This document shows, piece by piece, positions 10,176-47,510 of a stretch of 53,732 nt of DNA (its first letter is position 1; each line of letters begins with the position of its first letter). This stretch comes from Candidatus Micrarchaeota archaeon. Its GTDB lineage: Archaea > Micrarchaeota > Micrarchaeia > Anstonellales > Bilamarchaeaceae. The position numbers and the translations under genes are program-made. Below the pieces are notes generated by a model. The model was not told where the DNA came from and did not search any database. It was given only the letters and a program-made list of their open reading frames with translations. The stretch lies in contig JBBITJ010000003.1 of assembly GCA_037440825.1 (NCBI GenBank), forward strand, positions 1 to 53,732. Reading direction: 5' to 3'.

Positions 10176-11396
10176 ATGACCCCCTGCACTGCACAACGTG
10201 GTTTCCATTCGAGTGTTCTCGACTGTCTGTTGAACGTTGCGTTCAACATCCGGCCCCCGGTTCCGGGTTTCGGTCTCGCCAGCTTCGGGAAGCTCGCGTT
10301 CGCGTTCCTGCTCCTGGCTGCCATTGCCGGCGCGCAGGGATACGATCCTAATTACAACAACCCGGAAGATCTCAGCAAGACCGTGAACGAGAATATAGAA
10401 ATAATAAAGAATTCCTCCCTGATCGCGGCCTGCACCGCAGCTCCCGGCTCGCATGATTTCCAGACTTCCGTGCTGTCCAATTCGCTCCTCGCGCTGTTCA
10501 TAATGGCGATGGTCATAGGGCTCATGTACATGGCAGGGAACTTCCTCCAGGTGCAGAGCGTGCTCGTGCTCGCGAGGCAGGAGATAAACGAGTTCCTGAT
10601 AACCGCGCTCATCGTCGTGTTCTTCACCATGATAATCTCCGCGCCCACTTATTTCGGCATAGACCTTTTCGACCAGGCAACGACTTACAGCTACAAGATG
10701 CTCTACAAGGTCGGCTCGGTCTCGTCTGTGCTGGTGAGCGCGAACATCGTCCTCAATTCCATCTACACGATCTACATACCGTTCGGGCAGATAAGGAAGG
10801 CGCTCACGATGCAGCTTGGGCCCGCGCTGCGGCCCATAATAGACGGCGTTTCGTTCTCGCTCCAGTTCCTCATCACCACCTACGGCGAATGGACGGTGTT
10901 CGTGTTCATGTTCTGCTTCATCCAGCGTTGGTTCCTGCCATTCTTCTTCCCGCTCGGCCTGATAATGCGCTCATTCCCACAGACGCGCGGAGGGGGCAAC
11001 GCCCTCATCGCATTGTCCATAGCCCTCTCCACAATCTACCCGTTCATGTTCTTCGTGGATTCCGTGATCTTCGCGAAGCAGTTCCCCGAGGACACCAGCA
11101 TAGGCGCGTATTTCGAGCAGGCGGTGCGTTCGGTGTTCGCCGCGCTCGGAATCGGAGGCGTGGCCGCGGTGTTCTTCGGCTTCTCGCTCATATTCGTCTC
11201 GCCCATACTCGTGGGCGCGCTGCTGCTCATCTCATACTTGATGTTCGACGTCGGGTGGGAAGTCCTCCACCTGGTGATGATCTTCAGCATAATCCTGCCT
11301 GTATTGAACATATTCCTCACCCTCTCGTTCACGAGGGAGATATCGAAGCTGCTCGGGACGGAAATAAGCCTGGGGGCGTTCGCAAAGCTGATATGA
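10176..11396 (+). CDS. polytopic membrane protein, paralog 4 of 6, with unusual N-terminal extension
   Basis: The only in-frame ATG is at 10176. A 38-aa extension encoded by heptad arrays precedes the signal peptide 'KLAFAFLLLAAIAGAQG'. It carries the motifs 'LMYMAGNFLQVQS' and 'IMRSFPQTRGGGNA...STIYP' and the tail 'GTEISLGAFAKLI'. Confidence 0.8.
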   Translation: MTPCTAQRGFHSSVLDCLLNVAFNIRPPVPGFGLASFGKLAFAFLLLAAIAGAQGYDPNYNNPEDLSKTVNENIEIIKNSSLIAACTAAPGSHDFQTSVLSNSLLALFIMAMVIGLMYMAGNFLQVQSVLVLARQEINEFLITALIVVFFTMIISAPTYFGIDLFDQATTYSYKMLYKVGSVSSVLVSANIVLNSIYTIYIPFGQIRKALTMQLGPALRPIIDGVSFSLQFLITTYGEWTVFVFMFCFIQRWFLPFFFPLGLIMRSFPQTRGGGNALIALSIALSTIYPFMFFVDSVIFAKQFPEDTSIGAYFEQAVRSVFAALGIGGVAAVFFGFSLIFVSPILVGALLLISYLMFDVGWEVLHLVMIFSIILPVLNIFLTLSFTREISKLLGTEISLGAFAKLI

Positions 11397-11397
11397 C

Positions 11398-12453
11398 ATG
11401 GGATTCTACCTTCCGGAATACAAGCCCTTGATGGACACGGCTGTATGCCAGCCGGGCTTCAGCGAGAGCTTCTTCTATTTCCCGGACTGGGCGTCCACGT
11501 CCCTGGTCGCCCTGCTCGCGTCTGCGTTCATCCTTGCATTCCTGTACATGTTCGCCTCTATGTTCCAGAACCAGCAGAGCGTGGCGCGCGTGAAGATAGA
11601 GCTGTACGAGCTTATAGTCACAGCCGCGATATTCGCAGTCCTCTTCATGATGCTCAACGGCATGTGCAGCATCCAGACCGGATGGATATTCCCCGGCGCA
11701 GGGCACAACTCCAAGGTGCTCGGATGGGAGGACTGGAGCGGCAAGTCCATATACTATTCCTCTTTCAACTACCTGATGGAATTCGCCGATGACACGCTGA
11801 TAGTGATGAGCTACCAGTATCTCGGCTATGCGTTCATAGACTTCTTAACGAGCATGGAGATCTCCTCCACGCCCATGGGCATAGGGGCCACGATGAAGCC
11901 AACTTCCGGGCTGGGCGCGGTGGTGAAGCCGGTGCTCAACAACGCGTTCAGCGTCGAGATCCTGTCGGTGATAACCGCGCAGGCGCAGGTATACGTGATG
12001 GACTACGGCACGTATGGCATGCTGAAATACCTTCTGCCCCTGGCGCTCATAATGCGCAGCTTCACGCTCACGCGGCGCATAGGCGGCACGATAATCTCCA
12101 TCACCATTGTTTTCCTGTTCGTCTACCCGCTGCTCGTGATACCCTCGTACATGGTCGTTAACGACTCCCTGTTCGGTAGCATATCCAAGTACCTCCAGGG
12201 CGGGCAGTATGCAGGCGTGTGGGGGGCCAGCACCTACTTCTGGGCCGTTATAGAGATGATGTTCAAGTTCCTGTGGAGCCCGGACTTCCTCTTCGGCTAC
12301 GCGCTGCTCTTCATGCCGTTCATAGCCAAGATATTCATAGGAGGCGTGTTCATGCCCCTCTTCAACACGATAATACTCACGAACACCGCCAAGTACCTGT
12401 CCAGGTCGCTTGGAGAAGAGATAGATATAACAAACCTGACCAGGATGATTTAG
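11398..12453 (+). CDS. polytopic membrane protein, paralog 5 of 6
   Basis: The start is 1 nt after the paralog 4 stop. It carries the motifs 'FLYMFASMFQNQQ' and 'IMRSFTLTRRIGGT...LFVYP' and the tail 'GEEIDITNLTRMI'. Confidence 0.8.
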   Translation: MGFYLPEYKPLMDTAVCQPGFSESFFYFPDWASTSLVALLASAFILAFLYMFASMFQNQQSVARVKIELYELIVTAAIFAVLFMMLNGMCSIQTGWIFPGAGHNSKVLGWEDWSGKSIYYSSFNYLMEFADDTLIVMSYQYLGYAFIDFLTSMEISSTPMGIGATMKPTSGLGAVVKPVLNNAFSVEILSVITAQAQVYVMDYGTYGMLKYLLPLALIMRSFTLTRRIGGTIISITIVFLFVYPLLVIPSYMVVNDSLFGSISKYLQGGQYAGVWGASTYFWAVIEMMFKFLWSPDFLFGYALLFMPFIAKIFIGGVFMPLFNTIILTNTAKYLSRSLGEEIDITNLTRMI

Positions 12454-12482
12454 CATGACGGGCGTTTACACGAGTGATTTTG

Positions 12483-13484: not shown

Positions 13485-13552
13485 ACCCTAGCCGCAGCTA
13501 GGAGTGCCCTGCCCCAGTTTTGTTTATAAAATTACCCTCCCTATCCATCAGC

Positions 13553-14107: not shown

Positions 14108-14111
14108 CCGC

Positions 14112-15179: not shown

Positions 15180-15234
15180 GCCATTTAAGTGGCCTATAAT
15201 CTTTTTAAAACAGTTTGCTTCATAATTTTACACT

Positions 15235-16017: not shown

Positions 16018-16036
16018 TTCTGCCAATAAGAAATAG

Positions 16037-16351: not shown

Positions 16352-16505
16352 CCTAACACCTGGAAGGAATTGGCTGAAGAAATTTAAATTCTTTTTCCGC
16401 AGTTCCCCATGCAGTCGGCAGCGTCCCGGAATCCGTTGTACGTTATCCGCAGCCTGTAATAGTCAGTCTCCAGTTTCGAAACGCTCAACCTAAAACCCGG
16501 AACGC

Positions 16506-17774
16506 TCACTTGGGAAAATCTATCCTGTCCGCTCCCATGAGGTCGCGCAGCGCCTTGGGCACCGCCACCCCGTTCTCGTCCTGGTAATTTTCCAGTATCG
16601 CTATCAGCGTCCTTCCGACCGCGAGCCCGCTTCCGTTGAGCGTGTGCGCGAACTTCACTTCTCCGTCCTTGTCCCTGTACCTTATGTTCGCCCTCCTCGC
16701 CTGGAAGTCGGTGCAGTTGCTGCACGAAGATATCTCCCTGTACCTGTCCTGGCTCGGAATCCACACTTCTATATCGTAAGTCTTTGCGCTTGCGAACCCC
16801 ATGTCCCCTGTGCATAGCGTTATGACTCGGTAGGGCAATTCGAGCAGCTCGAGGATGTAGCACGCGTCAGCCACCATCCCTTCCAGCTCCTCGAAGCTCT
16901 TTTCCTGCGTGGAGAACTTCACCAGCTCCACCTTGTCGAACTGGTGCTGCCTTATCATGCCCTTTATGTCCTTCCCGTAAGCGCCCGCCTCCTTCCTGAA
17001 GCACGAGCTCAGCGCGGTGTATTTTTTTGGCAAATCCTTGTATTCCAGTATCTCCTGCGCGTGCAGATTGGTGAGCGGCACTTCCGCAGTCGGTATGAGC
17101 CACAAATCATCCTGCGTGCTGTACAAATCTTCCGCGAACTTGGGCAGCTGGCCAGTGCCTCTCATAATATCCGTCTTCACCAATTCGGGAACCCACACCT
17201 CTTTGTATCCGCGAGTAGTGTGCACGTTGAGCATGAAATTCGCAATCGCCCTCTCAAGCCTCGCAACTGCGCCGTAGAGCACCGTGAACCTGTGGCCGCC
17301 GAGCTTCGCGCCGCGCTCGAAATCAATCAGCCCGAGCTTTTCTCCCAGCGCATCGTGCGAAAGCACTTCCTTCGAGGTCTTTTTCGGTATGCCCCACTTG
17401 CGGAGTTCATGGTTTTGCGTCTCGTCCTTCCCCACCGGAACGCTCTTGTCCGGAATATTGGGAATCCTGAGCATGAGGTCTGCGATCTCCTTCTCGAGCT
17501 TCTCCACTTCCTCGTTGAGCGCCTTTATGCGCGCGCTCACCTCTCCGCTCCTCTTAATGTGCTGTGTAGCGTCCTGCCCCTTCTTCTTCGCCTCGGAAAT
17601 CGCGAGCCCCAGCTTGTTCCTCTCAGCGCGGAGCTCCTCCTCTTCCTTCTTGTCCTTCCTCCATATCTTGTCCATTTCAAGGAGCCGGTCCACCGCCTTG
17701 GTGTCCTGGTTCCTGTTCGCGAGCGCGGCCTTGAGCGCCTCGGGGTCGCTTCTTATGAGCTTTATGTCGAGCAT
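16506..17774 (-). CDS. serS: serine--tRNA ligase
   Basis: 422 aa with an N-terminal coiled-coil arm and a class II catalytic core ('FRKEAG', 'GSGLAVGRTL'). Confidence 0.95.
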   Translation of the reverse strand: MLDIKLIRSDPEALKAALANRNQDTKAVDRLLEMDKIWRKDKKEEEELRAERNKLGLAISEAKKKGQDATQHIKRSGEVSARIKALNEEVEKLEKEIADLMLRIPNIPDKSVPVGKDETQNHELRKWGIPKKTSKEVLSHDALGEKLGLIDFERGAKLGGHRFTVLYGAVARLERAIANFMLNVHTTRGYKEVWVPELVKTDIMRGTGQLPKFAEDLYSTQDDLWLIPTAEVPLTNLHAQEILEYKDLPKKYTALSSCFRKEAGAYGKDIKGMIRQHQFDKVELVKFSTQEKSFEELEGMVADACYILELLELPYRVITLCTGDMGFASAKTYDIEVWIPSQDRYREISSCSNCTDFQARRANIRYRDKDGEVKFAHTLNGSGLAVGRTLIAILENYQDENGVAVPKALRDLMGADRIDFPK

Positions 17775-17816
17775 GATTACACCTGGAAGTAGTTCGCATC
17801 CCGATTTTAAAAACGT

Positions 17817-18074
17817 TTAACCTATGCCTTTCGCGGCCAGTACTGCGCGTATCTTCTGGAAAGCGGTTTCGTGCCTCGATGCCTTGATGCCCTCGCTCCA
17901 GTCAGGCACAGCAGCGACCTCTATCATCCTTTTCACAGCCAGCGCCTTCTCCCTCGTCCTCTCGTCTCCAGAATCAGCAATCACTCCGAGCCCGTACATC
18001 ATGTCCCTGCATACGCTGTAAAGCGCCTTGTCCGGGCTGCGCAACCCTTCGACTAGGGATTTCAAATCGTGCAT
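17817..18074 (-). CDS. hypothetical small protein (85 aa)
   Basis: An internal ATG at 18074 lies behind an AT-rich divergent promoter. The upstream part of track ORF 17817..18995 is antisense to carA and is rejected. Confidence 0.4.
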   Translation of the reverse strand: MHDLKSLVEGLRSPDKALYSVCRDMMYGLGVIADSGDERTREKALAVKRMIEVAAVPDWSEGIKASRHETAFQKIRAVLAAKGIG

Positions 18075-18126
18075 GTTGTAATTTATGTTCAAAAGATATT
18101 TAAACCATTTGAACATAACTATATTC

Positions 18127-18393
18127 ATGGCTAAACAGACCAAAGGCACGACCGGCCAGGACAAAACGGCGTACTCGAGCTGGCTGGGGGTAGGTGGCGG
18201 CGCAACACCCAGGTTCTCTCCGGAAGCCGACAGGTTCAAGCCTGAGCCGGAAAAGCAGTGCGGCTTCATGAAGGCGATAGCTGACGCGATAAGGCGGCGA
18301 GCACGGAAGGCCTTCAGGTCGATGCGCCCGAGAAAAAAACCGTCTACACAGCCGCACGACAAGATCGAAGAGGACCCTCCTCTGGGAATATAA
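18127..18393 (+). CDS. hypothetical small basic protein (88 aa)
   Basis: The ATG lies about 25-30 nt downstream of the TATA-like 'atatttaaa'. Codon usage resembles neighbouring genes. I recognise no family. Confidence 0.3.
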   Translation: MAKQTKGTTGQDKTAYSSWLGVGGGATPRFSPEADRFKPEPEKQCGFMKAIADAIRRRARKAFRSMRPRKKPSTQPHDKIEEDPPLGI

Positions 18394-18431
18394 GTTTTAA
18401 AATTCTCTTCAGGAATTATTATTCTGATTTT

Positions 18432-19499
18432 ATGCGGAACGGCAAGCACGCAGTCCTTATCCTGAAAGACGGCTCCATCATCCAGGGCGCAGGATTCGGC
18501 GCGCCCGCGGTGCGCACCGGCGAACTCGTTTTCAACACCGCGATGCAGGGCTACCAGGAATCGCTCACCGACCCGAGCTACGCAGGGCAAATACTCCTCG
18601 CAACCTACCCGCTCATAGGCAATTACGGCATAAACAGCTACTCGTTCGAGAGCAAGAGGATGCACGCTGAGGGCTACGTGATACGCGAGCTCTGCGAGGA
18701 GCCCGAGCACATGGATTCCGTGAAGGAACTCGATTCCTTCCTCGCGGAGAACAACCGGCCGGGGATCCAGGGCATAGACACCCGCTCGTTGGTGCTCAAG
18801 CTCAGGAACTTCGGCGTCATGCCTGCGCTCATAGCGGTGAGCGAGAATCCGCTCAACATCAAGGAGCTGCTGGAGAACCTGAAATTCGATTATGAGAACA
18901 TAGACTTCATAAAAAACATCACAGTAAAGGAGCCGGAAGTGTACGGGAAAGGCAACAGGAAAAAAGTCGTCCTGATAGACTACGGAGCCAAGCACAACAT
19001 AATAAACGAACTGGTGAAGCGCGGGCTCGAAGTCACGGTCGTTTCAGCGTACGAGGAGCTCGAAACCATACGCTCATTCGAGCCCGAAGGGATAATGCTC
19101 TCCAACGGACCGGGAAATCCCGCCATACTGACGCACGCGCACAAGGTCATAAAAGGGCTGAATGATTACCCGATTTTCGGAATCTGCCTGGGCAACCAGC
19201 TCATCTCCCACGCGTTCGGCGGGGACACTTACAAATTGAAATTCGGCCACCGTGGAGTGAACCACCCGGTGATAAACCTGAAGGACGGCAGGGTGCGCAT
19301 AACCACCCAGAACCACGGCTTCGCCGTAGGAAAAGTGCCAGACGGCTTCGAAATCACGGAGAAGAGCGCGAACGACGGGAGCGTGGAAGGAATGGAATCG
19401 TCCGATGGCCGCGTGTTCTGCGTCCAGTACCACCCGGAATCCACGCCGGGCCCGAACGACACCAAGTATTTATTCGACAGGTTCGTGAAGATGCTGTGA
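18432..19499 (+). CDS. carA: carbamoyl-phosphate synthase small (glutaminase) subunit
   Basis: 355 aa. It has a CPSase small-chain N-domain plus a class I amidotransferase with 'GICLGNQL' (catalytic Cys) and 'VQYHPE'. Confidence 0.9.
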   Translation: MRNGKHAVLILKDGSIIQGAGFGAPAVRTGELVFNTAMQGYQESLTDPSYAGQILLATYPLIGNYGINSYSFESKRMHAEGYVIRELCEEPEHMDSVKELDSFLAENNRPGIQGIDTRSLVLKLRNFGVMPALIAVSENPLNIKELLENLKFDYENIDFIKNITVKEPEVYGKGNRKKVVLIDYGAKHNIINELVKRGLEVTVVSAYEELETIRSFEPEGIMLSNGPGNPAILTHAHKVIKGLNDYPIFGICLGNQLISHAFGGDTYKLKFGHRGVNHPVINLKDGRVRITTQNHGFAVGKVPDGFEITEKSANDGSVEGMESSDGRVFCVQYHPESTPGPNDTKYLFDRFVKML

Positions 19500-19509
19500 G
19501 GTGAGCGGA

Positions 19510-20349
19510 ATGAAAAATTTTCTTTCCATTAACGATCTGAAAAAAGAGGAGATGGAGAAGATATTCGAGATGGCAGACAAACTTGGAGGGGAGAATTTCT
19601 TCCCCAAGCCGCAGTGCGCAGGGCTCCTGTTCGACCGCCCGAGCACACGCACGCGCGTCTCTTTCGAGGCAGCGCTCAGGCAGCTGGGCATGCACCCTAT
19701 TTCCCTTGATTACGTCTTCTCGCAGCTGGCTGGAGGCGAATCCATAGAGGATACCGGAAAGGTGCTGAGCGGCTACGTGTCCCTGATAATAGCGAGGCTC
19801 CACAGGCACGACATGCTCAACAGGCTCGCAGCTTCCTCTTCCGTCCCGGTGATAAACGCCGCGACGGATTTGGAGCACCCGTGCCAGGCGCTTGGAGACC
19901 TTTATACGATAAGGCAGAACGGCCTGCTTAAGAAAGGGACAAAGATTGCTTACATCGGCAACCCGGGCTGCAGCGTAGCCAACGCGCTGCTCGCAGGAGC
20001 ATCGAAATTCGGAATCGAATTGTTCTTCATCTCTCCCAAAGGATATTCCCCGAACCCTGCTTACGGGAAGGGCGCGAAAGTGCTGAACGATTTCAGCGCG
20101 AAGGCTGACATCGCGTATTCCAATTCGTTCGGAGTGGGGGAGGATGAGCTCAAGGCGTTCATACCCTACCAGCTCGACGCCGCGAACATGAAAAAGCTGG
20201 GCGCCAAATTCTTCATGCACCCCCTTCCGGCGATGCGGGGCGTGGAAGTGAGCGACGAGGTGCTTGATGGGAAGACCAGTTTGGCGTGGGCTCAGGCGAA
20301 AAACAAGGTCGCTGTGCAGAAGGCGCTGATAGAGTACCTGCTTGCATAG
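19510..20349 (+). CDS. aspartate/ornithine carbamoyltransferase family protein (short, OTC-like with HPLP motif)
   Basis: It has the motifs 'STRTR', 'HPCQALGD' and 'FMHPLPAMRGVEVSDEV'. A GAGGTGAG SD precedes the ATG at 19510, whereas the track start at 19501 is a GTG inside that SD. Confidence 0.8.
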   Translation: MKNFLSINDLKKEEMEKIFEMADKLGGENFFPKPQCAGLLFDRPSTRTRVSFEAALRQLGMHPISLDYVFSQLAGGESIEDTGKVLSGYVSLIIARLHRHDMLNRLAASSSVPVINAATDLEHPCQALGDLYTIRQNGLLKKGTKIAYIGNPGCSVANALLAGASKFGIELFFISPKGYSPNPAYGKGAKVLNDFSAKADIAYSNSFGVGEDELKAFIPYQLDAANMKKLGAKFFMHPLPAMRGVEVSDEVLDGKTSLAWAQAKNKVAVQKALIEYLLA

Positions 20350-20418
20350 CCGGGGCTGGAAACTCGAAACAGAAAACCACAAGCTGAAAAGACGCGAAGA
20401 AAGTAATAAGAAACTGTT

Positions 20419-20492
20419 CGCCCTCGCCGAGATTTGAACTCGGATCATAGCCTCCGCAGGGCCACATTCTATCCAGGTTAAACTACAAGGGC
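20419..20492 (-). tRNA. tRNA-Arg (anticodon GCG)
   Basis: I folded the cloverleaf by hand. The acceptor stem is GCCCTTG/CGAGGGC, the anticodon arm is TGGCC-CTGCGGA-GGCTA, the T arm is CCGAG-TTCAAAT-CTCGG and the discriminator is G. No CCA is encoded. Confidence 0.85.
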
Positions 20493-20618
20493 AAAAAGTT
20501 GCTTTGCGCCCGTCCGCCCATTTCGGAAGGCTGCCGAACGATATGTATTTTAAATACACTAATTTTAATAAACTAATCTGCTAATCAGTCTCGATTATAT
20601 TGACTTAGAGGTGTCTGA

Positions 20619-20765: not shown

Positions 20766-20798
20766 GCGTTCCGGGTTCAGAGTTTTGACGGTGAAACT

Positions 20799-21050
20799 AT
20801 GTCTAACGAAGTCGCGGTGTCCATGAAGATATTCATGGACGACCAGGGCAAGATGGAGGAGACGCTCAAGGAGATAAACAAGATTGTCACGGTCACGAAC
20901 ATGAAGACCGAGGACGTGGGCTTCGGCATAAAGGCCCTCAAGATCATCTTCTTGATGGGCGACGACGGCGGAGTGGACCAGATAGAGGAGAAGATCGCAG
21001 CGGTCCAGAACGTCAGCCAGGTCCAGGTAGAGGAAGTAAGCAGGCTTTAG
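20799..21050 (+). CDS. ef1b: translation elongation factor aEF-1 beta
   Basis: 83 aa. The pattern 'KIFMDD...VGFGIKALKIIFLMGDDGGVDQIEEKI...VSQVQVEEVSRL' matches the archaeal EF-1beta pattern. Confidence 0.8.
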   Translation: MSNEVAVSMKIFMDDQGKMEETLKEINKIVTVTNMKTEDVGFGIKALKIIFLMGDDGGVDQIEEKIAAVQNVSQVQVEEVSRL

Positions 21051-21100
21051 CCAGTTCCGTTTTGTTTTCTATTCTTTTTCTCCGTTTTAAAACTAGAATT

Positions 21101-22726
21101 TTACCTCCTTCTCTTGTACACGAAGAGGTAGAATGCGACTGCGAGCACTGCAAATGCCACTCCCGCGTAAGTCGCCAGGACCGTCATGTCGTAGCTGACA
21201 TTGACCGTGACCCTTCCATCCTCGTAGCCGGTCTTCTTCACTGTAAGTGTGTATGTGCCCGGCTCGGCGAACCTGAGCGTCACCGTGCCGTTCTTCCCTG
21301 CGTACGTCTTTCCAGCAGCCGAGACTGTGAAATCATCCATGCGCTGGCCGTTCTCGTCAAGCACGCTTATTGTGAAATTCTTGTCCTCGGTCACGCTCCG
21401 GGGCGCATCCACGATCATGACGAACTTCTGTGCATTCTGGTCCCTGAACAGCACCACGTAAGTGAAGCCCTTGCTCTCCTGGCCCGCGCTGTCCGAAACT
21501 CTGCATTCCACGAAGACATTCCCGAATTCGTAGTTGTTCGGGTCAAAGATGTAGAACCAGTCGTTTCCTGAGACCTGCGCCATGTTCCACGTGCCGTTGT
21601 TCACCCTCACCGCGACCTGCGCGCCCGGATATTGCGAGAACACCCTTCCGCTCACGTTCACGACCTTGTACCCTATGCTCTCGCCGGTGAACGGCGAGTC
21701 TATCGTGCAGCCTCTGTCTACGACGTACGAGTATATCAGCCCGTCATAGGACCCGAAATAGAGCATGCCGCCGTAGAACGCTGGGTTGTGTACCCAGCCG
21801 TGCGCAGAGAACGCGATCACCACGTTCCCGTTCTTCGTGTCGACTATGTATATCTTGTTGTCGTTGCTCCCGGTTATGAGCATCTCCCTTCCCCCAAGGG
21901 AAGTGATTACCATGCTGCCCTGCACAGCTTCAGCAGTCTTCCTCTTCCAGATTAGTGTCCCGTTCTTGGAGTTGACTGCGTATATGTAGCCGTCGTTGCT
22001 CCCGAAATACACCACGTCGTTGGAGTATATGGGATCGGACATTATCCAGCCGCCCGTGTCGAACGTCCAGAGGATCTTTCCGGTGTATATGTTGACCGCA
22101 TTCATCTTGCCGTCGTTGCTGCCTATGTACACCACTCCCAGGTGGAATTCCGGCCTGGATTCCCAGAACGGGCTCACGCGCGTGCGGCTCCTCACGCTCC
22201 CGTTTATGTCCGCGACGACCAGCTCGTCAGAAGCGCCGTATATGAGCGTGTCGTTGAGCAGCAGTATGTCGGTGAGCGGCATATCGTTCTCGTGGATAAC
22301 CCACAGGAGCGTGCCTTCGTAGTCGTATTTCTTGACCCCCTTGTCCGTGGATATGTAGATGAATTCGGGCGAAGCCGCCATCCCGTAGATGGTCGTCTCG
22401 TTCACCTTATGCTGGATATTGCCGCTCCTGTCGAGTATTACTATGCGGGAATTGGATATGCCGACTATCTGGCTTCCCGGGCTTTCAAGCTCCTTGATTT
22501 TCTCCTCGACATACGTCCTCCACGAGATTATGCCGTTCTGCTGGTACGCGCAGTAGATGAATCCGTCGTAGGATGCGGCGACCACCTTGTCGCCGAAGAA
22601 AACCAGGTTGCTCTCTATGGGCCCGAACGTGAGCAGGCTCCAGCTCTGGCCGGCAAAGGATGCGGAAAGAAGAATGATGAATGCCAGAAAAAGGCGGTTG
22701 CGCGTTCCGAGTTCCCTGGCTGGCAT
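21101..22726 (-). CDS. PQQ-like beta-propeller repeat surface protein with C-terminal Ig/PEGA-like domain and tail anchor
   Basis: It has repeated 'DG.IY(A/I)V....G..(L/I)W' blades, 'GTYTLTVKKTGYEDGRVTVNV', a C-terminal TM helix plus 'KRRR', and the N-terminal anchor 'LFLAFIILLSASFAG'. The start is uncertain (22726 or 22777). The track start at 22882 overlaps rpl11. Confidence 0.75.
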   Translation of the reverse strand: MPARELGTRNRLFLAFIILLSASFAGQSWSLLTFGPIESNLVFFGDKVVAASYDGFIYCAYQQNGIISWRTYVEEKIKELESPGSQIVGISNSRIVILDRSGNIQHKVNETTIYGMAASPEFIYISTDKGVKKYDYEGTLLWVIHENDMPLTDILLLNDTLIYGASDELVVADINGSVRSRTRVSPFWESRPEFHLGVVYIGSNDGKMNAVNIYTGKILWTFDTGGWIMSDPIYSNDVVYFGSNDGYIYAVNSKNGTLIWKRKTAEAVQGSMVITSLGGREMLITGSNDNKIYIVDTKNGNVVIAFSAHGWVHNPAFYGGMLYFGSYDGLIYSYVVDRGCTIDSPFTGESIGYKVVNVSGRVFSQYPGAQVAVRVNNGTWNMAQVSGNDWFYIFDPNNYEFGNVFVECRVSDSAGQESKGFTYVVLFRDQNAQKFVMIVDAPRSVTEDKNFTISVLDENGQRMDDFTVSAAGKTYAGKNGTVTLRFAEPGTYTLTVKKTGYEDGRVTVNVSYDMTVLATYAGVAFAVLAVAFYLFVYKRRR

Positions 22727-22785
22727 TCCGCTTTTCGAAACGGGAAACCCAGAACTGCAAACTGCCTTTTCTTGCATGCTTGCCC

Positions 22786-26059: not shown

Positions 26060-26063
26060 ATGC

Positions 26064-27587: not shown

Positions 27588-28063
27588 TGAGTTCCCTGTT
27601 CCCAGTTTCGAGTTTTGCGGCGAAACCAGAGATCCCCGGTCCGAAACCGCGCAATGCATGCCTGAAGGGACAGTCGTCCCTGGAAATGCTCGTAACCGTG
27701 GCCGCGCTGCTCGCATATTCCCTGCCTATCGTGCTCCTGGTATTCTCGTTTTCCTACATGAAGCTGGAGGACGTGGCGCTCACGCAGGGGCGCGCCACAG
27801 TCCAGCAGCTCTCCGACGGCGTGAATTCCGTCTATCTCCAAGGAGAGGGCGCAAGGCACTCCATGCTCATAGACCTTCCGTCAGGCACGAGGAATCTCAC
27901 CGTGTCAGGAAAGACGATAACTCTCTACATTTCAGCCACAGGCGGCACATATTCCATTTCCCACCCTATTTTCGCCAACGCGAGCAGCTTCACGATTTCG
28001 GACCGCGTGGGGCTCATAAAAATCACGATGAGGATGGAAGGTGGACAGGTGATTCTGGAATGA
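27587..28063 (+). CDS. type IV prepilin-like protein 3 with long leader
   Basis: The taATG overlaps the upstream stop. A 27-aa leader ends in 'LKGQ', followed by 'SSLEMLVTVAALLAYSLPIVLLVF' (Glu at +5). No in-frame ATG lies closer to the hydrophobic helix. Confidence 0.65.
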   Translation: MSSLFPVSSFAAKPEIPGPKPRNACLKGQSSLEMLVTVAALLAYSLPIVLLVFSFSYMKLEDVALTQGRATVQQLSDGVNSVYLQGEGARHSMLIDLPSGTRNLTVSGKTITLYISATGGTYSISHPIFANASSFTISDRVGLIKITMRMEGGQVILE

Positions 28064-28653
28064 TTCCCAACCTCCCAATGGCATCAAAGCGCGGTTCCCA
28101 GTTCCCAGTTCCCAGTTCCGGCGCGATACCCAAAACTCAAAACAGGAAACCCCTTGTATCTACCAGCACTATGCCGGCACTGCGAGGCCAGGTGGCCACG
28201 GAGTTCTTCGTCTATTCCGCAGTCTTCCTCATAATCGTGCTGGCAGCGTACTTCAGCATATTCTTCGTGCAGAGCGCGGAAGTGGCGAACAAGGAAGCCC
28301 TCTACGTGAAATGGTTCGGCGAGCGCTTCGCATCGAACCTGAACACAGCGATGAGCAGCGGCGAGGGATTCTCGATGAAGATGGCGTTCTCTCCATACAT
28401 CCTGGAGAAGCCCTACTCGGTGTACATAAAGCCTGCACGCGCGGGCAGGAACGGCTTCGTGTTCATAACGTGGAGCGCGGGCAACGTGACCTATTCTTAC
28501 CCCATAGGTAACATGAACATAGGCGCAGGCGACAGCTGCGTGCACGCCATATCTTCCCCTGACGGCGCATACTACGAGATCACGAGCGCGAGAGGGGAGC
28601 TCTGGTTCGAGAACGACGGCAGCTCTATAACCATCACACAGGGATGCACATGA
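28060..28653 (+). CDS. type IV prepilin-like protein 4 (long-leader start; alternative short-leader start at 28171)
   Basis: ATGA overlap at 28060. The sequence '...MPALRGQVATEFFVYSAVFLIIVLAAYF' has Glu at +5. The ATG at 28171 would give a classical 7-aa leader. Confidence 0.6.
   Translation: MIPNLPMASKRGSQFPVPSSGAIPKTQNRKPLVSTSTMPALRGQVATEFFVYSAVFLIIVLAAYFSIFFVQSAEVANKEALYVKWFGERFASNLNTAMSSGEGFSMKMAFSPYILEKPYSVYIKPARAGRNGFVFITWSAGNVTYSYPIGNMNIGAGDSCVHAISSPDGAYYEITSARGELWFENDGSSITITQGCT
28094..28121 (+). repeat. tandem heptanucleotide repeat (GTTCCCA)x3 plus a partial copy
   Basis: 'gttcccagttcccagttcccagttccgg' is read directly from the sequence. It is followed at 28129-28153 by an inverted degenerate array 'cccaaaactcaaaacaggaaacccc'. 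Confidence 0.9.
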
Positions 28654-29162
28654 AAGTTTCCAGTCTCCAGTCTCCTGTTTCGAAGTGCGGATTTAAGAAA
28701 GGCCAGTACTTCAGCTTCGACGCGATAGTCGCTTCGGTGCTCTTCGCGCTGACATTCATAACCCTGGTGAGCTACTGGTTCAGCGTGAAGTCCGGCTTGG
28801 AATCCAAGGATGAGGAGATGCTCAAGGAGGCCGCGAGGATAAGCGACGCGATGCTCAACCCTGGCCTGTTCCAGAACTCTTACAGCGATCCGCGCGTCAG
28901 CCTGAGCCGCATAAAGTCGTTCGAGGGCAAGAGCCAGGATGAGCTGAAGGAGATGTTCAACACCCCCTACAATATCTCCCTGTTGGTGGATACGGAAGCG
29001 GGCACCCGCATAGCGGCCGTGGGCCCTGATCCGACCGACCCGGCATATTCATACATATTCTCCAATGTTGTCAACACAGCCAAGATGCGGAGGATCGTCG
29101 TAATCCAGGTCAACGAGAGCTACGAAACTCCTGCTGCGCTGGATATCTACCTGTACAACTAG
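28644..29162 (+). CDS. type IV prepilin-like protein 5 with long leader
   Basis: There are ATGs at 28644 and 28650, and the latter forms an ATGA overlap with the upstream stop. The leader ends in 'FKKGQ', followed by 'YFSFDAIVASVLFALTFITLVSYWF'. Confidence 0.65.
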   Translation: MHMKVSSLQSPVSKCGFKKGQYFSFDAIVASVLFALTFITLVSYWFSVKSGLESKDEEMLKEAARISDAMLNPGLFQNSYSDPRVSLSRIKSFEGKSQDELKEMFNTPYNISLLVDTEAGTRIAAVGPDPTDPAYSYIFSNVVNTAKMRRIVVIQVNESYETPAALDIYLYN

Positions 29163-29181
29163 ATGGGCAGCGGGCAGAGTC

Positions 29182-29189
29182 TTTTTTTT
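29182..29189 (+). terminator. oligo-T tract (T8), candidate archaeal intrinsic terminator of the pilin-like operon
   Basis: 'cttttttttc' lies 20 nt after the stop at 29162, in a convergent intergenic region. Confidence 0.5.
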
Positions 29190-29223
29190 CCGAAAATAAG
29201 AAATTAAATGAAAAAAGGAAAAA

Positions 29224-34581: not shown

Positions 34582-34687
34582 TTCGGTCGGCGTTCAGACC
34601 GAAAGCTCTCAAATGCGTTTGAGATGGACCGGAAAATCCTCGCATCGCTCGGATTTTCCGGTGATTTGAACCCGCCTCGTTCAAATC
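34582..34687. other. four contiguous perfect stem-loops (candidate structured RNA or regulatory region)
   Basis: The stems are 7 bp (34582-34603), 7 bp (34607-34624), 12 bp (34628-34662) and 9 bp (34663-34687). They lie between tRNA-Arg(CCG) and the small gene at 34475. Confidence 0.5.
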
Positions 34688-34756
34688 TCTCTTATAGAGG
34701 CTGGAAACCGGAAACCACAAGCTGAAAAGACGCGGAGAAACTAATAAGAAACTGTT

Positions 34757-34830
34757 CGCCCTCGTCGGGATTTGAACCCAAATCACAGCCTCCGGAGGGC
34801 CGCATCTTATCCAGGTTGGACTACAAGGGC
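34757..34830 (-). tRNA. tRNA-Arg (anticodon CCG)
   Basis: I folded the cloverleaf by hand. The acceptor stem is GCCCTTG/CGAGGGC, the anticodon arm is CGGCC-CTCCGGA-GGCTG and the T arm is TTGGG-TTCAAAT-CCCGA. The TATA-like 'tttaaataat' lies about 27-35 nt upstream. Confidence 0.85.
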
Positions 34831-34993
34831 AGATTATTATCCATCAGTTAAGTAGATTATTTAAACCTGAAACAGAACTGGCTCATAGTAGCCAATACGA
34901 AAAACAGCATTGTAAACTTGACGGCTTGCGACGCTTCTGCTAATCGGCTCAGTATTTAATCCTATATGAAAAATGAAAACTCAGAATTATGTT

Positions 34994-38819: not shown

Positions 38820-39641
38820 CTAATTTTGCCCTGCCACCGAATATCCGTTCCCCTCAGTCCTCAAGACAATCGTTCCATTCGCATCTGTCCTGAGCACCTC
38901 CGCTCCCGCAGCCCTCAGCCGCGCGAGCGTCCCGCTGTCCGGGTGGCCGTAATCGTTCTTTCCCACCTCGATCACTGCAATGAGGGGACTAACCTTCTGC
39001 AAAAATTCGGTTGATGAAGCGTATTTGCTTCCGTGGTGCGCAACCTTCAGAACATCAGCATCAATGTTTTCGGAAAGCAAATCCAGTTCGCATTCTCCGT
39101 CGCAGTCCGCATCCAAAAGGAGGGTGAAATTCCCGAACCGGACCATCATCACTATCGAATTCTGGTTCGGCTCATCGGAGCCGGTGTTCGCGTGCACCAC
39201 TTCCAGTTCCGCTTGCCCGAGCGCGAACCTTTGCCCCTTCTGCGCAATGATGATAGTTTCGCGGTCTATCTCGCCCATCGTCCTGTTGTAAGTGTAAGTT
39301 TCCCTTTCCTGCCCGTCCACAATCACGCTTTTCACGAAAAATTTCCTGAGCACTTCCGCGCATCCCCCTATATGGTCGGAATCCGTGTGCGTCATCACCA
39401 AATAATCTATCTTGTAAGCTCCAAGCTGCGTGAGATATTCCGCGATTTTATCCGATTGGCTCGCCTGCCCGCAATCAATCAGCATTGTATGGTTGCCGTT
39501 CCTTAGGAATTCCGAATCTCCCTGGCTCACGTTCAGGAAATATATCTCAAGAGTGGAGTTCACAGGCGGGTTCCCGCTCTCCGGTTTCCAGTTTTGCACG
39601 CATCCAAAAAGAAGAACAACCGCCAGGAGCATCCTTCTCAT
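38820..39641 (-). CDS. ComEC/Rec2-related metallo-beta-lactamase fold hydrolase, probable lipoprotein
   Basis: It has the lipobox-like 'LLFGC', 'VSQGDS', 'MTHTDSDHIGG' and 'VAHHGSKY'. Confidence 0.75.
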   Translation of the reverse strand: MRRMLLAVVLLFGCVQNWKPESGNPPVNSTLEIYFLNVSQGDSEFLRNGNHTMLIDCGQASQSDKIAEYLTQLGAYKIDYLVMTHTDSDHIGGCAEVLRKFFVKSVIVDGQERETYTYNRTMGEIDRETIIIAQKGQRFALGQAELEVVHANTGSDEPNQNSIVMMVRFGNFTLLLDADCDGECELDLLSENIDADVLKVAHHGSKYASSTEFLQKVSPLIAVIEVGKNDYGHPDSGTLARLRAAGAEVLRTDANGTIVLRTEGNGYSVAGQN

Positions 39642-40329: not shown

Positions 40330-40394
40330 ATTAATAATATTCTATGTAAATGAATTTATAAAGATTTATTAACCGCATCAAAGATGAAAAACTG

Positions 40395-40934: not shown

Positions 40935-40938
40935 TCTG

Positions 40939-42222
40939 ATGCTGGACGCGCTCAGGATGTTCCACTCTCTAGGCGCCTCGGACGGCGAGATATTCCACGC
41001 GAGCGAAACCTCCGTGGTCTACGAATATGCCGCAGGAGCACTCAAGGTGAAGAGCCGCGGCACGGACGAGGGTTTCGGTTTGCGTGTTTTGAGCGGCAGG
41101 AAGCTCGGCTTTTCCTATGCGAATTCCAAGTCGAAGCTTGAATCTGCCGTGAAATCCGCGCTCGCGTTCTCCAAGTTCTCGCAGAAGAGCGGCTTCTCGT
41201 TCGCCCTCAAGCAGGCATACCCGAAAACGGACTCATACGATCCCAAAGTGGCGGGACTGGACGAAGCCGCGCTGAAGGAGATGGTCCTGGAGCTCGTGGC
41301 CGGAGTGGAGGAGCATTCGGAAGTGATGCGCGCCATACTCGTTTGCGGAACAGGCAAGAGCGCAATCGCGAACACTTCATTGCTTTTCGCCGAGAGGGCC
41401 AGCACATCCTTCATGGCTTACGTGGAAGCCAAGAACAAGGACGGCTTCGGGTTCGCTGACTATTCCCATTACAGAATCGCAGGGGATCTCCGCGCGCTCG
41501 GAAGGAAAGCCGGGCTCATGGCGAAGGAGATGAAATCTCCGAAGAAGCTCCAGGCGGGCAAATACACGGTGGTTTTTTCGCAGGAAACGCTCGCATCCCT
41601 TTTCGGGTTGCTCGCGGCCTCTTTTTCCGGAGACCTCAAGAGGAGGAAAATCTCCAAGTTGTGGGACGCCGAAGGTAAAAAGATGTTCGACGAAAAGCTC
41701 ACTGTGCTGGACGATCCCTTTGCGGATGCGGAGGCGAGATGCGCGTTTGACGGCGAAGGAGTCGCGTCGAAGAAGCGCCCGCTGATAGAGAAAGGGGTGG
41801 TGAAGGATTTCTATTACAGCCGCGAGATAGCCGCGCTCGAATGCGTGGAGAAGGAAGGAAGCTGCTCCAGGACTGATTACAAGACAATCCCCGGCATTGG
41901 TCCCTCCAACACCGTGATTGGAACAGGGGACGCTGACCTCGGAACCGAATCTTCAGCTGAATCCGAATTGGGCAAATACCTCTACATAGAATCCATGCAC
42001 GGCCTGCACACGGCCAACACCACCACAGGCGATTTCGGGTGCGAGGCGAGCATCGCGTTCCTGCACGAGAACGGTAAAAAAGTCCCGGTGCGCGGGTTCA
42101 TGGTGAGCGAAAACGTATTTAACCTGTTCAACAAAATAGAGGCAGTCGGAAAACGCCAGATGCAGGCAGGGGACTTCGTTTCCCCTGCGCTCGCGTTCAG
42201 GGACGTTTCCATAGTTTCGTGA
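40939..42222 (+). CDS. TldD/PmbA family metallopeptidase (U62)
   Basis: 427 aa. The C-terminal 'GDFGCEASIAF..NGK' and overall pattern fit PmbA/TldD. Confidence 0.75.
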   Translation: MLDALRMFHSLGASDGEIFHASETSVVYEYAAGALKVKSRGTDEGFGLRVLSGRKLGFSYANSKSKLESAVKSALAFSKFSQKSGFSFALKQAYPKTDSYDPKVAGLDEAALKEMVLELVAGVEEHSEVMRAILVCGTGKSAIANTSLLFAERASTSFMAYVEAKNKDGFGFADYSHYRIAGDLRALGRKAGLMAKEMKSPKKLQAGKYTVVFSQETLASLFGLLAASFSGDLKRRKISKLWDAEGKKMFDEKLTVLDDPFADAEARCAFDGEGVASKKRPLIEKGVVKDFYYSREIAALECVEKEGSCSRTDYKTIPGIGPSNTVIGTGDADLGTESSAESELGKYLYIESMHGLHTANTTTGDFGCEASIAFLHENGKKVPVRGFMVSENVFNLFNKIEAVGKRQMQAGDFVSPALAFRDVSIVS

Positions 42223-42240
42223 CTTTTCAACGTGGTGCTC

Positions 42241-44241: not shown

Positions 44242-44255
44242 AATTCGTTTGCGGC

Positions 44256-45491: not shown

Positions 45492-45562
45492 ATTCAGGGT
45501 TATTCAAAATCTATTTAAATATGTTATCCATACAATATCTATCTCTATTTGATGAGAGTCTG

Positions 45563-46165: not shown

Positions 46166-46174
46166 GTGATTGCG

Positions 46175-46459
46175 ATGGAGATCAACATACTGAACCATGA
46201 AAAGAACACCCTCGAATTCGAGATATCCGGAGCAGGCGCTTCGATACCTGAAATGCTAACCAACAAGCTCTCCGGCAGCAAGAGCGTGGAGTTCGTGTCC
46301 TACAAGATAGACCACCCTCTATCCGGAAAGCCGCGCGTGATAGTGAAGACGAAGAGCAAGGACGCGCTGGAAGTCACGCTCGAGGCCCTCGAGGAAATCA
46401 AGGGCGAAGTTGCGGAATTCAGGAAGGCGTTCAAGGGCTCCACAAGTGATCCTTCATAG
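46175..46459 (+). CDS. rpoL: DNA-directed RNA polymerase subunit L (Rpo11)
   Basis: About 94 aa. The sequence 'EINILNHEKNTLEFEISGAGASIPEMLTNKL...VEFVSYKIDHPL' matches the Rpo11 pattern. Confidence 0.75.
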   Translation: MEINILNHEKNTLEFEISGAGASIPEMLTNKLSGSKSVEFVSYKIDHPLSGKPRVIVKTKSKDALEVTLEALEEIKGEVAEFRKAFKGSTSDPS

Positions 46460-46474
46460 GCTGCGGCGATTCCT

Positions 46475-47458
46475 GTGGACCTGAAAGGGCTGGACAAGAA
46501 GCTCACCAAATTCGAGGAGAGCGCCGCGCAGGTCGCGGTGCTCGCAATAACCTTCATCCTCTACCTTCTCACCAAGAACGCGATTTTCGGGGCGCTAGTG
46601 GCGGTCGAATTCATCGCGTTCGTGCTCCTGGAAGTCCAGCAGGGCGTGAAGAAGCACGGCGTGAAGAACGAGATAATAGACACTCTCAAGTCATTCGGGA
46701 TCGCGATTCTCGCATGGCTCGCGATTTCCTTCCTTCTCCGCACCACGGTTCCAGTGAGCGCGGTCGTTTCCTGCTCCATGCTCCCGAGCCTCCAGCGGGG
46801 AGATTTGACGATAATACACGGCACGACTGCAGCGGAGCTCGCCGCGCCTGAGATAAACGTGAGCTGGGAAGAGCTGCAGAAAATCTATTCAACCTCTGCA
46901 AATATCTATTCCGAGTACGGGAATTTCAGCGTGGACGGCTCGCTGTTCTCCTATTGCCAGACCTACCAATTCACGAATCCCACCTGCAAATACTTCTTCT
47001 CCGAGCCGGAAAAATTCACTGAAGCCAGGGGCGGGCTGGAATTCCGCTACTCGAATTGCGAGCGCAGGCTTCTGGACGGAGGCGGAAGCTCGAAAACCCC
47101 GTGCATCACGTCCGTATCTTACGGCGGAACCGAATACGCTGCGAACGCATCGAACAGCATAATCGTCTACGAGCCGAACAAGGGCGACCTCTTCTCCTAT
47201 ACAGGGGACATAATCCACCGCGTCTTCCTGAAAGTCAAATCAGGGAACGACAGCTACGTGCTTACGAAAGGAGACAACAACAACATATTCGACATCCAGT
47301 TCTACGATTACTCAAGGAAGCTCGCGAACCGCCCGGTGCCTGAAAAGAATATAAAGGGCGAGCACATGTTCGCGATTCCCTATATAGGATATTTCAAGCT
47401 TTTCATCTCCGGATTCGTGGAGGAGCCCGTGTACTGCAATACGAACCTGGAGCATTAG
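46475..47458 (+). CDS. signal peptidase I, archaeal/ER type (S26B) with large insertion
   Basis: It has 'VVSCSMLPSLQRGDL' (Ser box), 'GDIIHRV' (His box) and 'KGDNNNIFD'. About 130 aa of Cys-containing insertion separates the Ser and His boxes. It has a GTG start. Confidence 0.7.
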   Translation: MDLKGLDKKLTKFEESAAQVAVLAITFILYLLTKNAIFGALVAVEFIAFVLLEVQQGVKKHGVKNEIIDTLKSFGIAILAWLAISFLLRTTVPVSAVVSCSMLPSLQRGDLTIIHGTTAAELAAPEINVSWEELQKIYSTSANIYSEYGNFSVDGSLFSYCQTYQFTNPTCKYFFSEPEKFTEARGGLEFRYSNCERRLLDGGGSSKTPCITSVSYGGTEYAANASNSIIVYEPNKGDLFSYTGDIIHRVFLKVKSGNDSYVLTKGDNNNIFDIQFYDYSRKLANRPVPEKNIKGEHMFAIPYIGYFKLFISGFVEEPVYCNTNLEH

Positions 47459-47510
47459 CAGCGGAGCAAAACGCTGAACTCAAAACCGAAAAACCAAAAC
47501 GCTCAGCGCA

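Follow-up and report, generated by a model that had tools for sequence, protein, structure and literature searches.

A dispersed family of degenerate GTTYC heptanucleotide arrays at gene junctions in a Micrarchaeota genome

The 53,732-nt stretch of Candidatus Micrarchaeota DNA analysed here (contig JBBITJ010000003.1, hereafter the window) carries a dispersed family of short arrays that are built from a degenerate 7-nt unit with the core GTTYC (GRAAC on the opposite strand) and that recur in 7-nt register at gene junctions (Table 1). An initial annotation of the same DNA had listed 12 such sites and proposed that they do not arise by chance but form a sequence family that is functional or mobile. 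Real arrays occupy 11 of these 12 positions, and the remaining one, 21052-21070, is weak, with one strict unit followed by a T-rich tract. Four further candidates lie beyond that list (34967-34987, 41072-41092, 48284-48297 and 48793-48813). GTTYC is on the minus strand at four of the listed sites (16466-16508, 20356-20380, 34701-34718 and 47467-47508). As an explanation we favour, with about even confidence, a junction-resident family of degenerate heptad repeats that turns over by slippage and by insertion or deletion of whole blocks, and that has a putative multimeric nucleic-acid-binding partner; readings of the arrays as terminators, as mobile palindromes or as phase-variation loci are weaker.

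The 7-nt register was first assessed from the spacing of the core word. Same-strand pairs of GTTYC or GRAAC occur 10 times at a distance of 7, 7 times at 14 and 7 times at 21, compared with 0-2 pairs at each other distance up to 40 nt. When clusters of the 5-nt core alone are counted, a spacing of 7 gives 19 clusters, whereas spacings of 5, 6 and 8-12 give 1-4. A triple-heptad scan, in which a soft position weight matrix (PWM) was summed across three units in register and third-order Markov simulations served as the null, returned 12 clusters with a score of at least 16 (0.40 expected) and 23 clusters with a score of at least 12 (2.6 expected). The register is also evident in a motif-free test, which measures self-identity at lag L across 21-28 comparisons. 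In this test, lag 7 stands out among the lags that are not multiples of three, with 2-4 clusters at strict thresholds (none or one at lags 4, 5, 8, 10 and 11) and 14 clusters at a loose threshold (1-3 at the compared lags); the strongest lag-7 segments are nearly all of the GTTYC type, and the remainder are marginal. Tandem Repeats Finder reported period 7 at 28094 and 28655 and at no other array; the family is too degenerate for standard repeat finders. Thus, the recurrence and phasing described in the initial annotation are borne out, and the dispersed GTTYC heptad family is real, with chance excluded.

The consensus of the unit is G-T-T-Y-C-S-R, with per-position frequencies of.82 (G),.75 (T),.79 (T),.86 (Y),.87 (C/T),.89 (S) and.75 (R), and an array holds 2-5 units. 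Three identical adjacent units are found at 28094 only; elsewhere, G-T-T-Y-C is the common part, and positions 4, 6 and 7 vary. Both non-coding trailers and coding sequence contain the word, the latter in all three frames. Intergenic arrays are richer in T (GTTTT units) than coding arrays, and units that contain TGA or TAG are almost confined to arrays outside coding sequence. The consensus itself is free of stop codons in all six frames, a property which was considered as a distinguishing feature and rejected, as 50 % of all heptamers share it; it permits residence in genes, yet it is unremarkable. A longer shared element was also considered and rejected. The initial annotation had noted that several sites start with the same sequence, GCGTTCCGGGTT, and this sequence is indeed present in exactly two copies in the window (GTTCCGGGTT in three), but this count is no higher than the motif itself predicts.

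The arrays are strongly biased toward gene junctions. Ten of the 11 strong sites are either intergenic or within 100 nt of the start of a coding sequence (CDS), inside it, two classes which together make up 19.7 % of the window (P = 8e-7), in agreement with the position bias proposed earlier. The contexts that had been named at that time, i.e., after serS, on both sides of ef1b, after both tRNA-Arg genes and in the convergent spacer at 47.5 kb, are correct, as is the occurrence at the 5′ ends of genes for exported proteins, which comprise three prepilin-like genes, a PQQ propeller with a signal peptide, a lipoprotein and a multi-transmembrane (multi-TM) protein. A more general rule is the gene junction just past the upstream stop, and exported proteins are over-represented because N-terminal leaders tolerate insertions. 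Four of 20 arrays begin 2-3 nt past a same-strand stop codon, namely those of serS, the zinc-finger gene, gene 26064-27587 and prepilin-like gene 2 (P = 6e-5, with the null confined to spacers and gene starts), and all four carry GTTYC on the sense strand of the upstream gene; an array at position 3356 of the related locus L004 begins 2 nt past a stop codon as well. Arrays inside genes fall in cleaved or disordered segments, i.e., prepilin-type leaders, the n-regions of signal peptides (the 10176 gene and the PQQ protein), the linker that follows a lipobox cysteine (gene 38820-39641) and a low-complexity N-terminus (gene 47511-48365).

The relative orientation of the arrays is biased, too. An inverted unit is found within 40 nt after 10 of 23 forward arrays and before only 1 of 23, with a chance expectation of 0.087. 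The favoured arrangement is a forward array followed by an inverted one (→←), an architecture seen at seven sites, and about half of the arrays have no inverted partner.

For comparison with relatives, eight syntenic Micrarchaeota loci were obtained from one genome-collection scan, and a near-identical strain (L480) and four further relatives (L481, L482, L484 and L485) were added through protein look-ups. Exact-protein look-ups for contigs that extend beyond the window gave L483 as the sole new contig, which lies wholly inside the window. The lag-7 excess is found in L001 and L004 as well as in the window. A single array occurs in 16 kb of L482 and none in 12 kb of L481, and Micrarchaeota relatives of lower identity have none. 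The identity of DnaG to that of the window is 83 % for L004, 77 % for L481 and L001, and 76 % for L482. The repeat family is thus specific to one Micrarchaeota clade, and the comparison of orthologous spacers, which the initial annotation had recommended, gave arrays in the closest relatives, no arrays in more distant ones, and blocks that are present or absent at individual junctions.

Informative junctions for such comparison lie in an operon of five genes at 25436-29162, which has no Pfam or NCBIfam matches and is kept, beside an S49 peptidase gene, in L001, L004, L481 and L482. Three of its genes (prepilin-like genes 1-3, with starts at 27587, 28171 and 28650) encode a [KR]G/Q motif followed by a hydrophobic helix, which, read by eye, looks like a class III (prepilin-like) signal peptide. 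In array-free genomes, the leaders of these proteins are MKAQ, MMKGQ, MKSMKGQ, MSARKGQ or MKGCRKGQ, and stop and start overlap (ATGA); in array-bearing genomes, the leaders have 18-42 residues, and every block is in frame. In gene 1, a four-unit forward array with degenerate inverted units directly follows the ATGA in the window and in L001, and it is missing from L004, L481 and L482. Upstream of gene 2, a block is found in the window only, and L001, L004, L481 and L482 all lack it. In gene 3, the window and L004 have the left edge ATGAAAGTTTCCAG in common and are fully different beyond it, and L481 has no array.

Other junctions behave in the same manner. The rpl11-PQQ junction is 1 nt in L001 and L004, compared with ~95 nt in the window, where it holds a forward array, the ATG and an inverted array. 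Between the zinc-finger gene and ef1b, L002 has a spacer of 9 nt and the window one of 33 nt, with the insertion placed downstream of the conserved stop codon and upstream of the GGTGA ribosome-binding sequence. These alignments show the arrays to be blocks of 25-95 nt added to junctions that otherwise have spacers of 1-9 nt or an overlapping stop and start, and their gain or loss falls within the time since these genomes diverged. In relatives, the spacer between dnaG and miaB ranges from 4 nt (L485) to 103 nt, with units in inverted orientation in L001, L481 and L482. As a separate observation, a gene for a MiaB-like radical-SAM/TRAM protein follows dnaG in six of six relatives (L001, L004, L481, L482, L484 and L485) and is lacking in the window, where dnaG is instead convergent with prepilin-like gene 3.

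The gene 1 array also gives a view of what is retained. The window shares it with a more distant relative, L001, whereas the closer L004 and L481 lack it, a pattern that points to repeated gain or loss at one point. The four units of this array read GTTCCCT GTTCCCA GTTTCGA GTTTTGC in the window and GTTTCCA GTTCCAG GTTTCCG GTTCCGG in L001, such that G-T-T is kept in four of four units with a pyrimidine at position 4, and positions 6-7 mostly differ. The rest of the inserted block is unalignable, and the encoded amino acids differ while the DNA word is kept, which suggests a constraint on the word.

Changes in unit number were traced within the window. The 3′ trailers of tRNA-Arg(GCG) and tRNA-Arg(CCG) match at 40 of the 42 positions that precede the array, and the tRNA bodies are less similar. 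The trailers then carry three units (GTTTTCT GTTTCGA GTTTCCA) and two units (GTTTCCG GTTTCCA), respectively, with GCC next in both. The similarity of the two trailer regions (20335-20500 and 34680-34838, minus strand) suggests that they were recently duplicated or converted, or else that they hold a conserved signal for 3′ processing or termination, and the one-unit difference indicates that copy number changes by whole units. The trailer comparison covers the window alone, as no tRNA genes fall within the relatives' loci. The near-identical strain L480 aligns with the window over 13,538 nt at 99.92 % identity. This alignment has 11 substitutions, none of which is in an array, and no indel, and it covers six arrays in this one strain pair.

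The window has 55 % G+C and is dense in coding sequence, with ~91 % within annotated genes according to our own curated map and a GC3 near 0.78. The DnaG primase encoded at 29224-30666 on the minus strand shows 76-77 % identity by tblastn to proteins from metagenome-assembled genomes of Candidatus Micrarchaeota. Among the neighbours of the arrays, Pfam identified serS (16506-17774, minus), aEF-1beta (ef1b, 20799-21050), a thioredoxin, an aspartate/ornithine carbamoyltransferase (19501-20349), a small HVO_2753-type zinc-finger protein, ribosomal protein L11, a PQQ beta-propeller with a signal peptide and a metallo-beta-lactamase lipoprotein (38820-39641, minus). ARAGORN and Rfam located tRNA-Arg(GCG), tRNA-Arg(CCG) and tRNA-Asn, and the Rfam search of the window found these three tRNAs and no other family.

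Table 1. Heptad arrays of the window, with the units read on the strand given, the genetic context and the score where one was assigned
Position	Strand	Units	Context	Score
10201..10280	+	Composite site: weak heptads 10201-10221; GTTGAAC/GTTCAAC hairpin; strict pair GTTCCGG GTTTCGG 10260-10273	5′ end of multi-TM/signal-peptide gene 10176-11396	PWM 18.5
16476..16503	-	GTTCCGG GTTTTAG GTTGAGC GTTTCGA, then one inverted unit GTTTCGAAAC	From 2 nt past serS stop	
20357..20377	-	GTTTTCT GTTTCGA GTTTCCA	3′ trailer of tRNA-Arg(GCG), convergent with carbamoyltransferase gene	24.3
20768..20798	+	GTTCCGG GTTCAGA GTTTTGA and one inverted unit GGTGAAAC	Fills the 33-nt spacer from zinc-finger stop (20765) to ef1b start (20799)	
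21054..21085	+	Weak member GTTCCGT, then T-rich tract phased ~7 nt	3 nt past ef1b stop, convergent spacer	
22697..22762		Inverted pair; on the PQQ gene (minus) strand GTTTGCA GTTCTGG GTTTCCC GTTTCGA, ATG, AGGGAAC TCGGAAC GCGCAAC	Between rpl11 stop and PQQ-propeller gene; strongest hairpin	
27591..27650	+	GTTCCCT GTTCCCA GTTTCGA GTTTTGC, then two GAAAC words	Begins 3 nt past stop of gene 26064-27587; in-frame leader of prepilin-like gene 1	25.7
28094..28150		(GTTCCCA)x3 GTTCCGG, then directly an inverted array (minus strand GTTTCCT GTTTTGA GTTTTGG)	Upstream of prepilin-like gene 2 ATG (28171)	26.8 and 21.9
28656..28683	+	GTTTCCA GTCTCCA GTCTCCT GTTTCGA	2 nt past gene 2 stop; in-frame leader of prepilin-like gene 3	
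34702..34715	-	GTTTCCG GTTTCCA	3′ trailer of tRNA-Arg(CCG)	
34967..34987	-	T-rich variant (ATTCTGA) GTTTTCA TTTTTCA	3′ trailer of tRNA-Asn; absent from initial annotation	13.8
39570..39597	+	GTTCCCG CTCTCCG GTTTCCA GTTTTGC	Antisense to lipoprotein gene 38820-39641(-); encodes linker QNWKPESGNP following lipobox cysteine	19.7
41072..41092	+	Possible member GTTTCGG TTTGCGT GTTTTGA	133 nt into PmbA/TldD-like gene	16.1
47466..47500	-	GTTTTGG TTTTTCG GTTTTGA GTTCAGC GTTTTGC	Convergent spacer, 10 nt past stop of 47511-48365(-)	17.1
48284..48297	+	Possible member GTTTTCC GTTTCCA	Antisense, 68 nt into 47511-48365(-), low-complexity N-terminus	15.5
48793..48813	-	Possible member GTTTCCG GATTCGC GTTCCGC	Within ORF 48367-49065(-); sole strong match away from gene boundaries	19.6

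Several features of the window stand apart from the arrays. A 392-aa open reading frame (ORF) at 17817-18995 on the minus strand overlaps a carA-like gene (18432-19499) on the plus strand, and a stretch of ~650 nt (17775-18431) has no confident gene call. An N6/N4 DNA methyltransferase-like gene at 33158-34306, assigned from a weak Pfam match and the L480 gene table, adjoins the tRNA cluster. The commonest 10-mer of the window, GAACGCGAGC or its complement, is present in seven copies (e.g., at 10292, 13133, 15477, 24150, 35302, 41160 and 42189), and its recurrence is probably a codon-usage effect in hydrophobic segments (...KLAF...).

Of 13 folded segments, two were clearly more stable than shuffled controls: the rpl11-PQQ block (22692-22768), with -33.8 kcal/mol and a z of -3.5, in which the start codon is partly paired and the complementarity reaches beyond the heptads, and the composite site (10198-10285), with -29.8 kcal/mol and a z of -2.7. 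Three →← blocks from relatives were marginal (z -0.1 to -1.9), two →← blocks of the window were no better than shuffled controls (z +0.75 and +1.2), and forward-only arrays, with z values of +1.2 to +1.6, were less stable than the controls. We therefore reject a general hairpin or processing signal, as most arrays only match shuffled controls in stability or fall below them. The poor folding of most arrays means that a hairpin is not their common denominator; an unstructured pyrimidine-rich strand is. Of the earlier proposal of a functional or mobile family, the family is supported, a repeat with indel dynamics and a sequence-specific binder is favoured, and a simple hairpin or processing signal is disfavoured.

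According to the explanation that we favour, arrays gain and lose whole units, and appear and vanish as blocks of 25-95 nt, presumably through replication slippage or local duplication. A typical block lies just past the upstream stop with GTTYC on the sense strand, often with an inverted array before the next start (→←). As ancestral junctions are nearly spacer-free, blocks on an overlapping stop and start are kept only when in frame. Such in-frame blocks become extra residues of disposable N-termini, such as prepilin-type leaders, signal-peptide n-regions and the post-lipobox linker, and the family survives only at harmless places. From one core word in strict 7-nt register and its retention at an orthologous site amid diverged flanks, we infer a sequence-specific multimeric binder, which may place one subunit on each heptad; proteins that bind single strands with a 7-nt footprint would fit as well. 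The likely effect would be the tuning of expression at the junction, through insulation or termination of read-through or through altered access to the downstream start. The arrays are non-essential, because close relatives live without them.

The following points weigh against this explanation. First, the multimeric binder is a candidate drawn from the register and the core word, and the absence of arrays from close relatives, together with the lack of a functional theme in the flanking genes, fits a neutral or selfish repeat equally well. Second, the retention of the core could partly be ascertainment, the arrays having been found with the motif. Third, a tally by hand of arrays on unambiguous transcripts gave ~7 in sense and 4-5 in antisense orientation, a strand bias which is weak overall and which does not separate a role at the RNA level from one at the DNA level. 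Fourth, the lack of any length change relative to L480 indicates that the tracts are not hypermutable and that turnover is not fast. Fifth, the clade material examined amounts to ~130 kb (the window with L001, L004, L481, L482, L484 and L485).

Unlikely, though the most probable of the alternatives, is a mobile palindrome akin to a repetitive extragenic palindrome (REP) or a miniature inverted-repeat transposable element (MITE), in which a →← block of 60-95 nt would be copied in trans to new junctions, forward-only arrays would be decayed halves, and any effect on mRNA stability or translation would be a by-product of the hairpin. The presence and absence of blocks at orthologous junctions agrees with such mobility, as do the seven →← sites, the two stable hairpins and the patchy occupation of the gene 1 junction, which suggests repeated gain or loss; a post-stop position is typical of bacterial REPs, too. 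However, no full-length element is shared: the 7-nt word alone is common, and arms, loops and lengths differ at every site. In addition, most →← blocks fold no better than shuffled controls and about half of the arrays have no inverted partner. Target-site duplications were not seen by eye at the compared junctions, where no systematic search was made, and no transposase, RAYT or integrase gene is found within the 53.7-kb window.

Next in probability, and likewise unlikely, the arrays could be phased U-tract terminators or insulators, in which unstructured U-rich RNA (GUUUC, GUUUU) would act on leaving a gene, a →← pair would stop polymerases arriving from both sides, and the GTTCC-rich versions would be the form of the signal in a GC-rich genome. 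Archaeal RNA polymerase terminates at oligo-T tracts. Arrays follow tRNA-Arg (twice), tRNA-Asn, serS, ef1b and gene 47511, three of them lie in convergent spacers, →← is favoured over ←→, and forward arrays are unstructured. The higher T content of intergenic arrays is in line with this proposal, as is T-T co-occurrence in the 3′ flanks, which peaks at lags 7-8 and 13-14. An oligo-T run (at least five T, on the sense strand downstream of a gene) is present at 47466, 34967 and 21054, and is absent from GTTCC-type and within-operon arrays.

T-rich tracts past the dnaG stop speak for termination as well. In the window, the tract TTTTTCC TTTTTTC ATTTAAT TTCTTAT directly follows the stop (29163-29223, minus strand) and is phased at ~7 nt; the tract of L481 (5774-5810) is also ~7-nt phased, and that of L484 (2471-2500) is T-rich. 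The post-dnaG tract is probably the local form of an oligo-T terminator. Against termination as the general role, many arrays lie within operons, at stop/start overlaps or in leader-coding sequence, where the downstream cistron would be lost, and GTTCCCA-type units hold only two T's. Moreover, several arrays are antisense to the sole expected transcript (39570, 48284, L001 10332 and L482 11139), and the same genes are found in close relatives without arrays.

A further proposal, which we regard as quite improbable, is that the arrays are platforms for a trans-acting factor that reads the exposed transcript past the stop codon, as an archaeal counterpart of the bacterial rut (Rho utilization) site. 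The transcript would offer unstructured, pyrimidine-rich RNA with one UYC per 7 nt, starting 2-3 nt past the stop. The array would be bare if the downstream cistron is untranslated and covered by ribosomes if it is translated, so that translation would be coupled to termination or decay at operon junctions, and →← pairs would insulate from both directions. If this is true, the in-frame insertions in leaders would be regulatory, beyond mere tolerance.

Far less probable is phase variation at contingency loci, in which slippage by 7 nt in the 5′ coding region would toggle the reading frame of surface proteins, as happens in Neisseria opa genes, whose leader-coding region holds pentamer repeats. 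Arrays do occupy the opening codons of the three prepilin-like genes, of the lipoprotein gene and of the gene for the secreted propeller, the unit length of 7 is not divisible by three, three perfect copies occur at 28094, and the tRNA trailers differ by one unit. However, the tracts are short and degenerate (2-5 units), with one array only that has more than two identical adjacent units, and that perfect array (28094) is upstream of the likely true start at 28171. In addition, half of the sites lie outside coding sequence, behind tRNA and housekeeping genes, and no length change is found in six arrays of the 99.92 %-identical strain.

The idea that the arrays arise from composition, from codon usage or from a peptide motif, with no nucleotide-level family, has a negligible probability: coding arrays do yield similar S/P/V/F/Q-rich or K/P/E/N-rich peptides, but the Markov and spacing controls exclude it, the same word stands in non-coding trailers and in all three frames, the orthologous gene 1 array keeps the DNA word though the amino acids differ, and codon-level constraint cannot produce a 7-nt register, which refutes it. 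Origin boxes were considered in addition. No match to a dyad like TTCCAGTGGAAAC, the archaeal origin box (ORB/mini-ORB) consensus, was found at up to two mismatches, and the arrays are dispersed, whereas origin boxes would cluster close to an AT-rich unwinding element; ORB-like boxes are rejected.

If the heptad family does have a binding factor, this factor would control expression at junctions across the whole genome and be specific to the lineage, in an organism for which very few regulators are known. The family offers a tractable case, as it combines a binding-site-like word, a strict post-stop anchor, a preferred →← order and clean presence/absence comparisons. It also illustrates how a very compact genome absorbs such DNA as extra leader peptide on prepilin-like and secreted proteins. 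For annotation, it is a hazard, in that start codons and signal peptides are easily miscalled at array-bearing genes.

Scans with (GTTYCNN)x4 gave at least 120 matches in each of the metagenome and viral collections, and the control words GTCYT and CTTYG likewise gave at least 120. As the control words reach this number too, these scans are uninformative on specificity, and no kinship is claimed for the metagenome arrays. None of the metagenome loci listed overlaps the gene region of the window, and the two protein-level matches were weak and fell in unrelated loci (L042, 43 %; L077, 30 %). At several of these loci (L040:728-1175 and L060:5039-5472, also L010, L092 and L053), an ORF of ~120 aa stands beside GTTYC-type heptad arrays and by eye resembles the four-helix-bundle / 23S rRNA intervening-sequence protein family. 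In L040 and L060, this ORF has a forward GTTTCRR x4 array on one side and an inverted array on the other, and it is inserted in operons (etfA / ETF-QO and trpE / trpG, respectively), an arrangement which looks like a small cassette with heptad arrays as its inverted ends. A link of this cassette to the family of the window is unproven, because control heptads are equally common in those collections.

Heptad arrays have precedents outside the archaea. TAACTGA heptamer repeats are found in marine Beggiatoaceae, Cyanobacteria and Bacteroidetes; most of them lie shortly before a start codon, and a translational role has been proposed for them (PMC4679880). Geobacter metallireducens has 'Gmet_H4' elements, with four GGGACCG heptads, at 49 intergenic and intragenic places, as well as five-heptad MTYCTGA sites (PMC2700814). 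As cited in PMC4679880, Mrazek et al. 2007 found heptanucleotides to be the most abundant class of long simple-sequence repeats in most prokaryotic genomes. Like these bacterial repeats, the window has short arrays (2-6 copies) of one genome-specific 7-nt word at many loci, near gene boundaries and sometimes inside genes, with a patchy, lineage-specific distribution; binding of a regulatory protein has been proposed as the role there, and by analogy may apply here. The differences are as follows. First, the host is archaeal (DPANN), and the unit is degenerate, with a GTTYC core and looser S and R; a limited literature search found no report of heptamer repeats in Micrarchaeota, DPANN or archaea generally. 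Second, the arrays of the window are anchored past stop codons rather than before starts, and →← partners are frequent. Third, TAACTGA contains stop codons, whereas the word of the window is stop-free in every frame and is absorbed in-frame into leader peptides.

Three other systems share traits with the arrays. The omega ribbon-helix-helix (RHH) repressor of plasmid pSM19035 binds operators of 7-10 WATCACW heptads, in →→ and →← arrays. By analogy, the 7-bp register, the conserved 5-bp core with looser edges, and the use of direct and →← units with ←→ disfavoured would be common to these operators and the arrays described here. In contrast, the word differs, and omega sites overlap plasmid promoters, whereas the arrays lie past stops and in leaders along a chromosome; the comparison is one of register and →→/→← arrangement, and an RHH partner for the arrays is hypothetical. 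The REPs and bacterial interspersed mosaic elements of enterobacteria, like further short palindromic repeats of intergenic DNA, are also short, intergenic, often post-stop and within operons, variably present, and arranged in inverted pairs. Unlike them, the arrays have a 7-nt periodicity, no conserved palindrome and mostly unstable hairpins, some are coding, and no RAYT is found in the window. Rickettsia palindromic elements likewise form a repeat family that is tolerated in-frame within protein genes, but they are conserved elements of 100-150 nt, whereas the family of the window shares a 7-nt word only, in blocks of 25-95 nt. The GTTYCSR family belongs with the dispersed heptanucleotide repeats of prokaryotes, which are a recurrent yet unexplained trait of some bacterial genomes.

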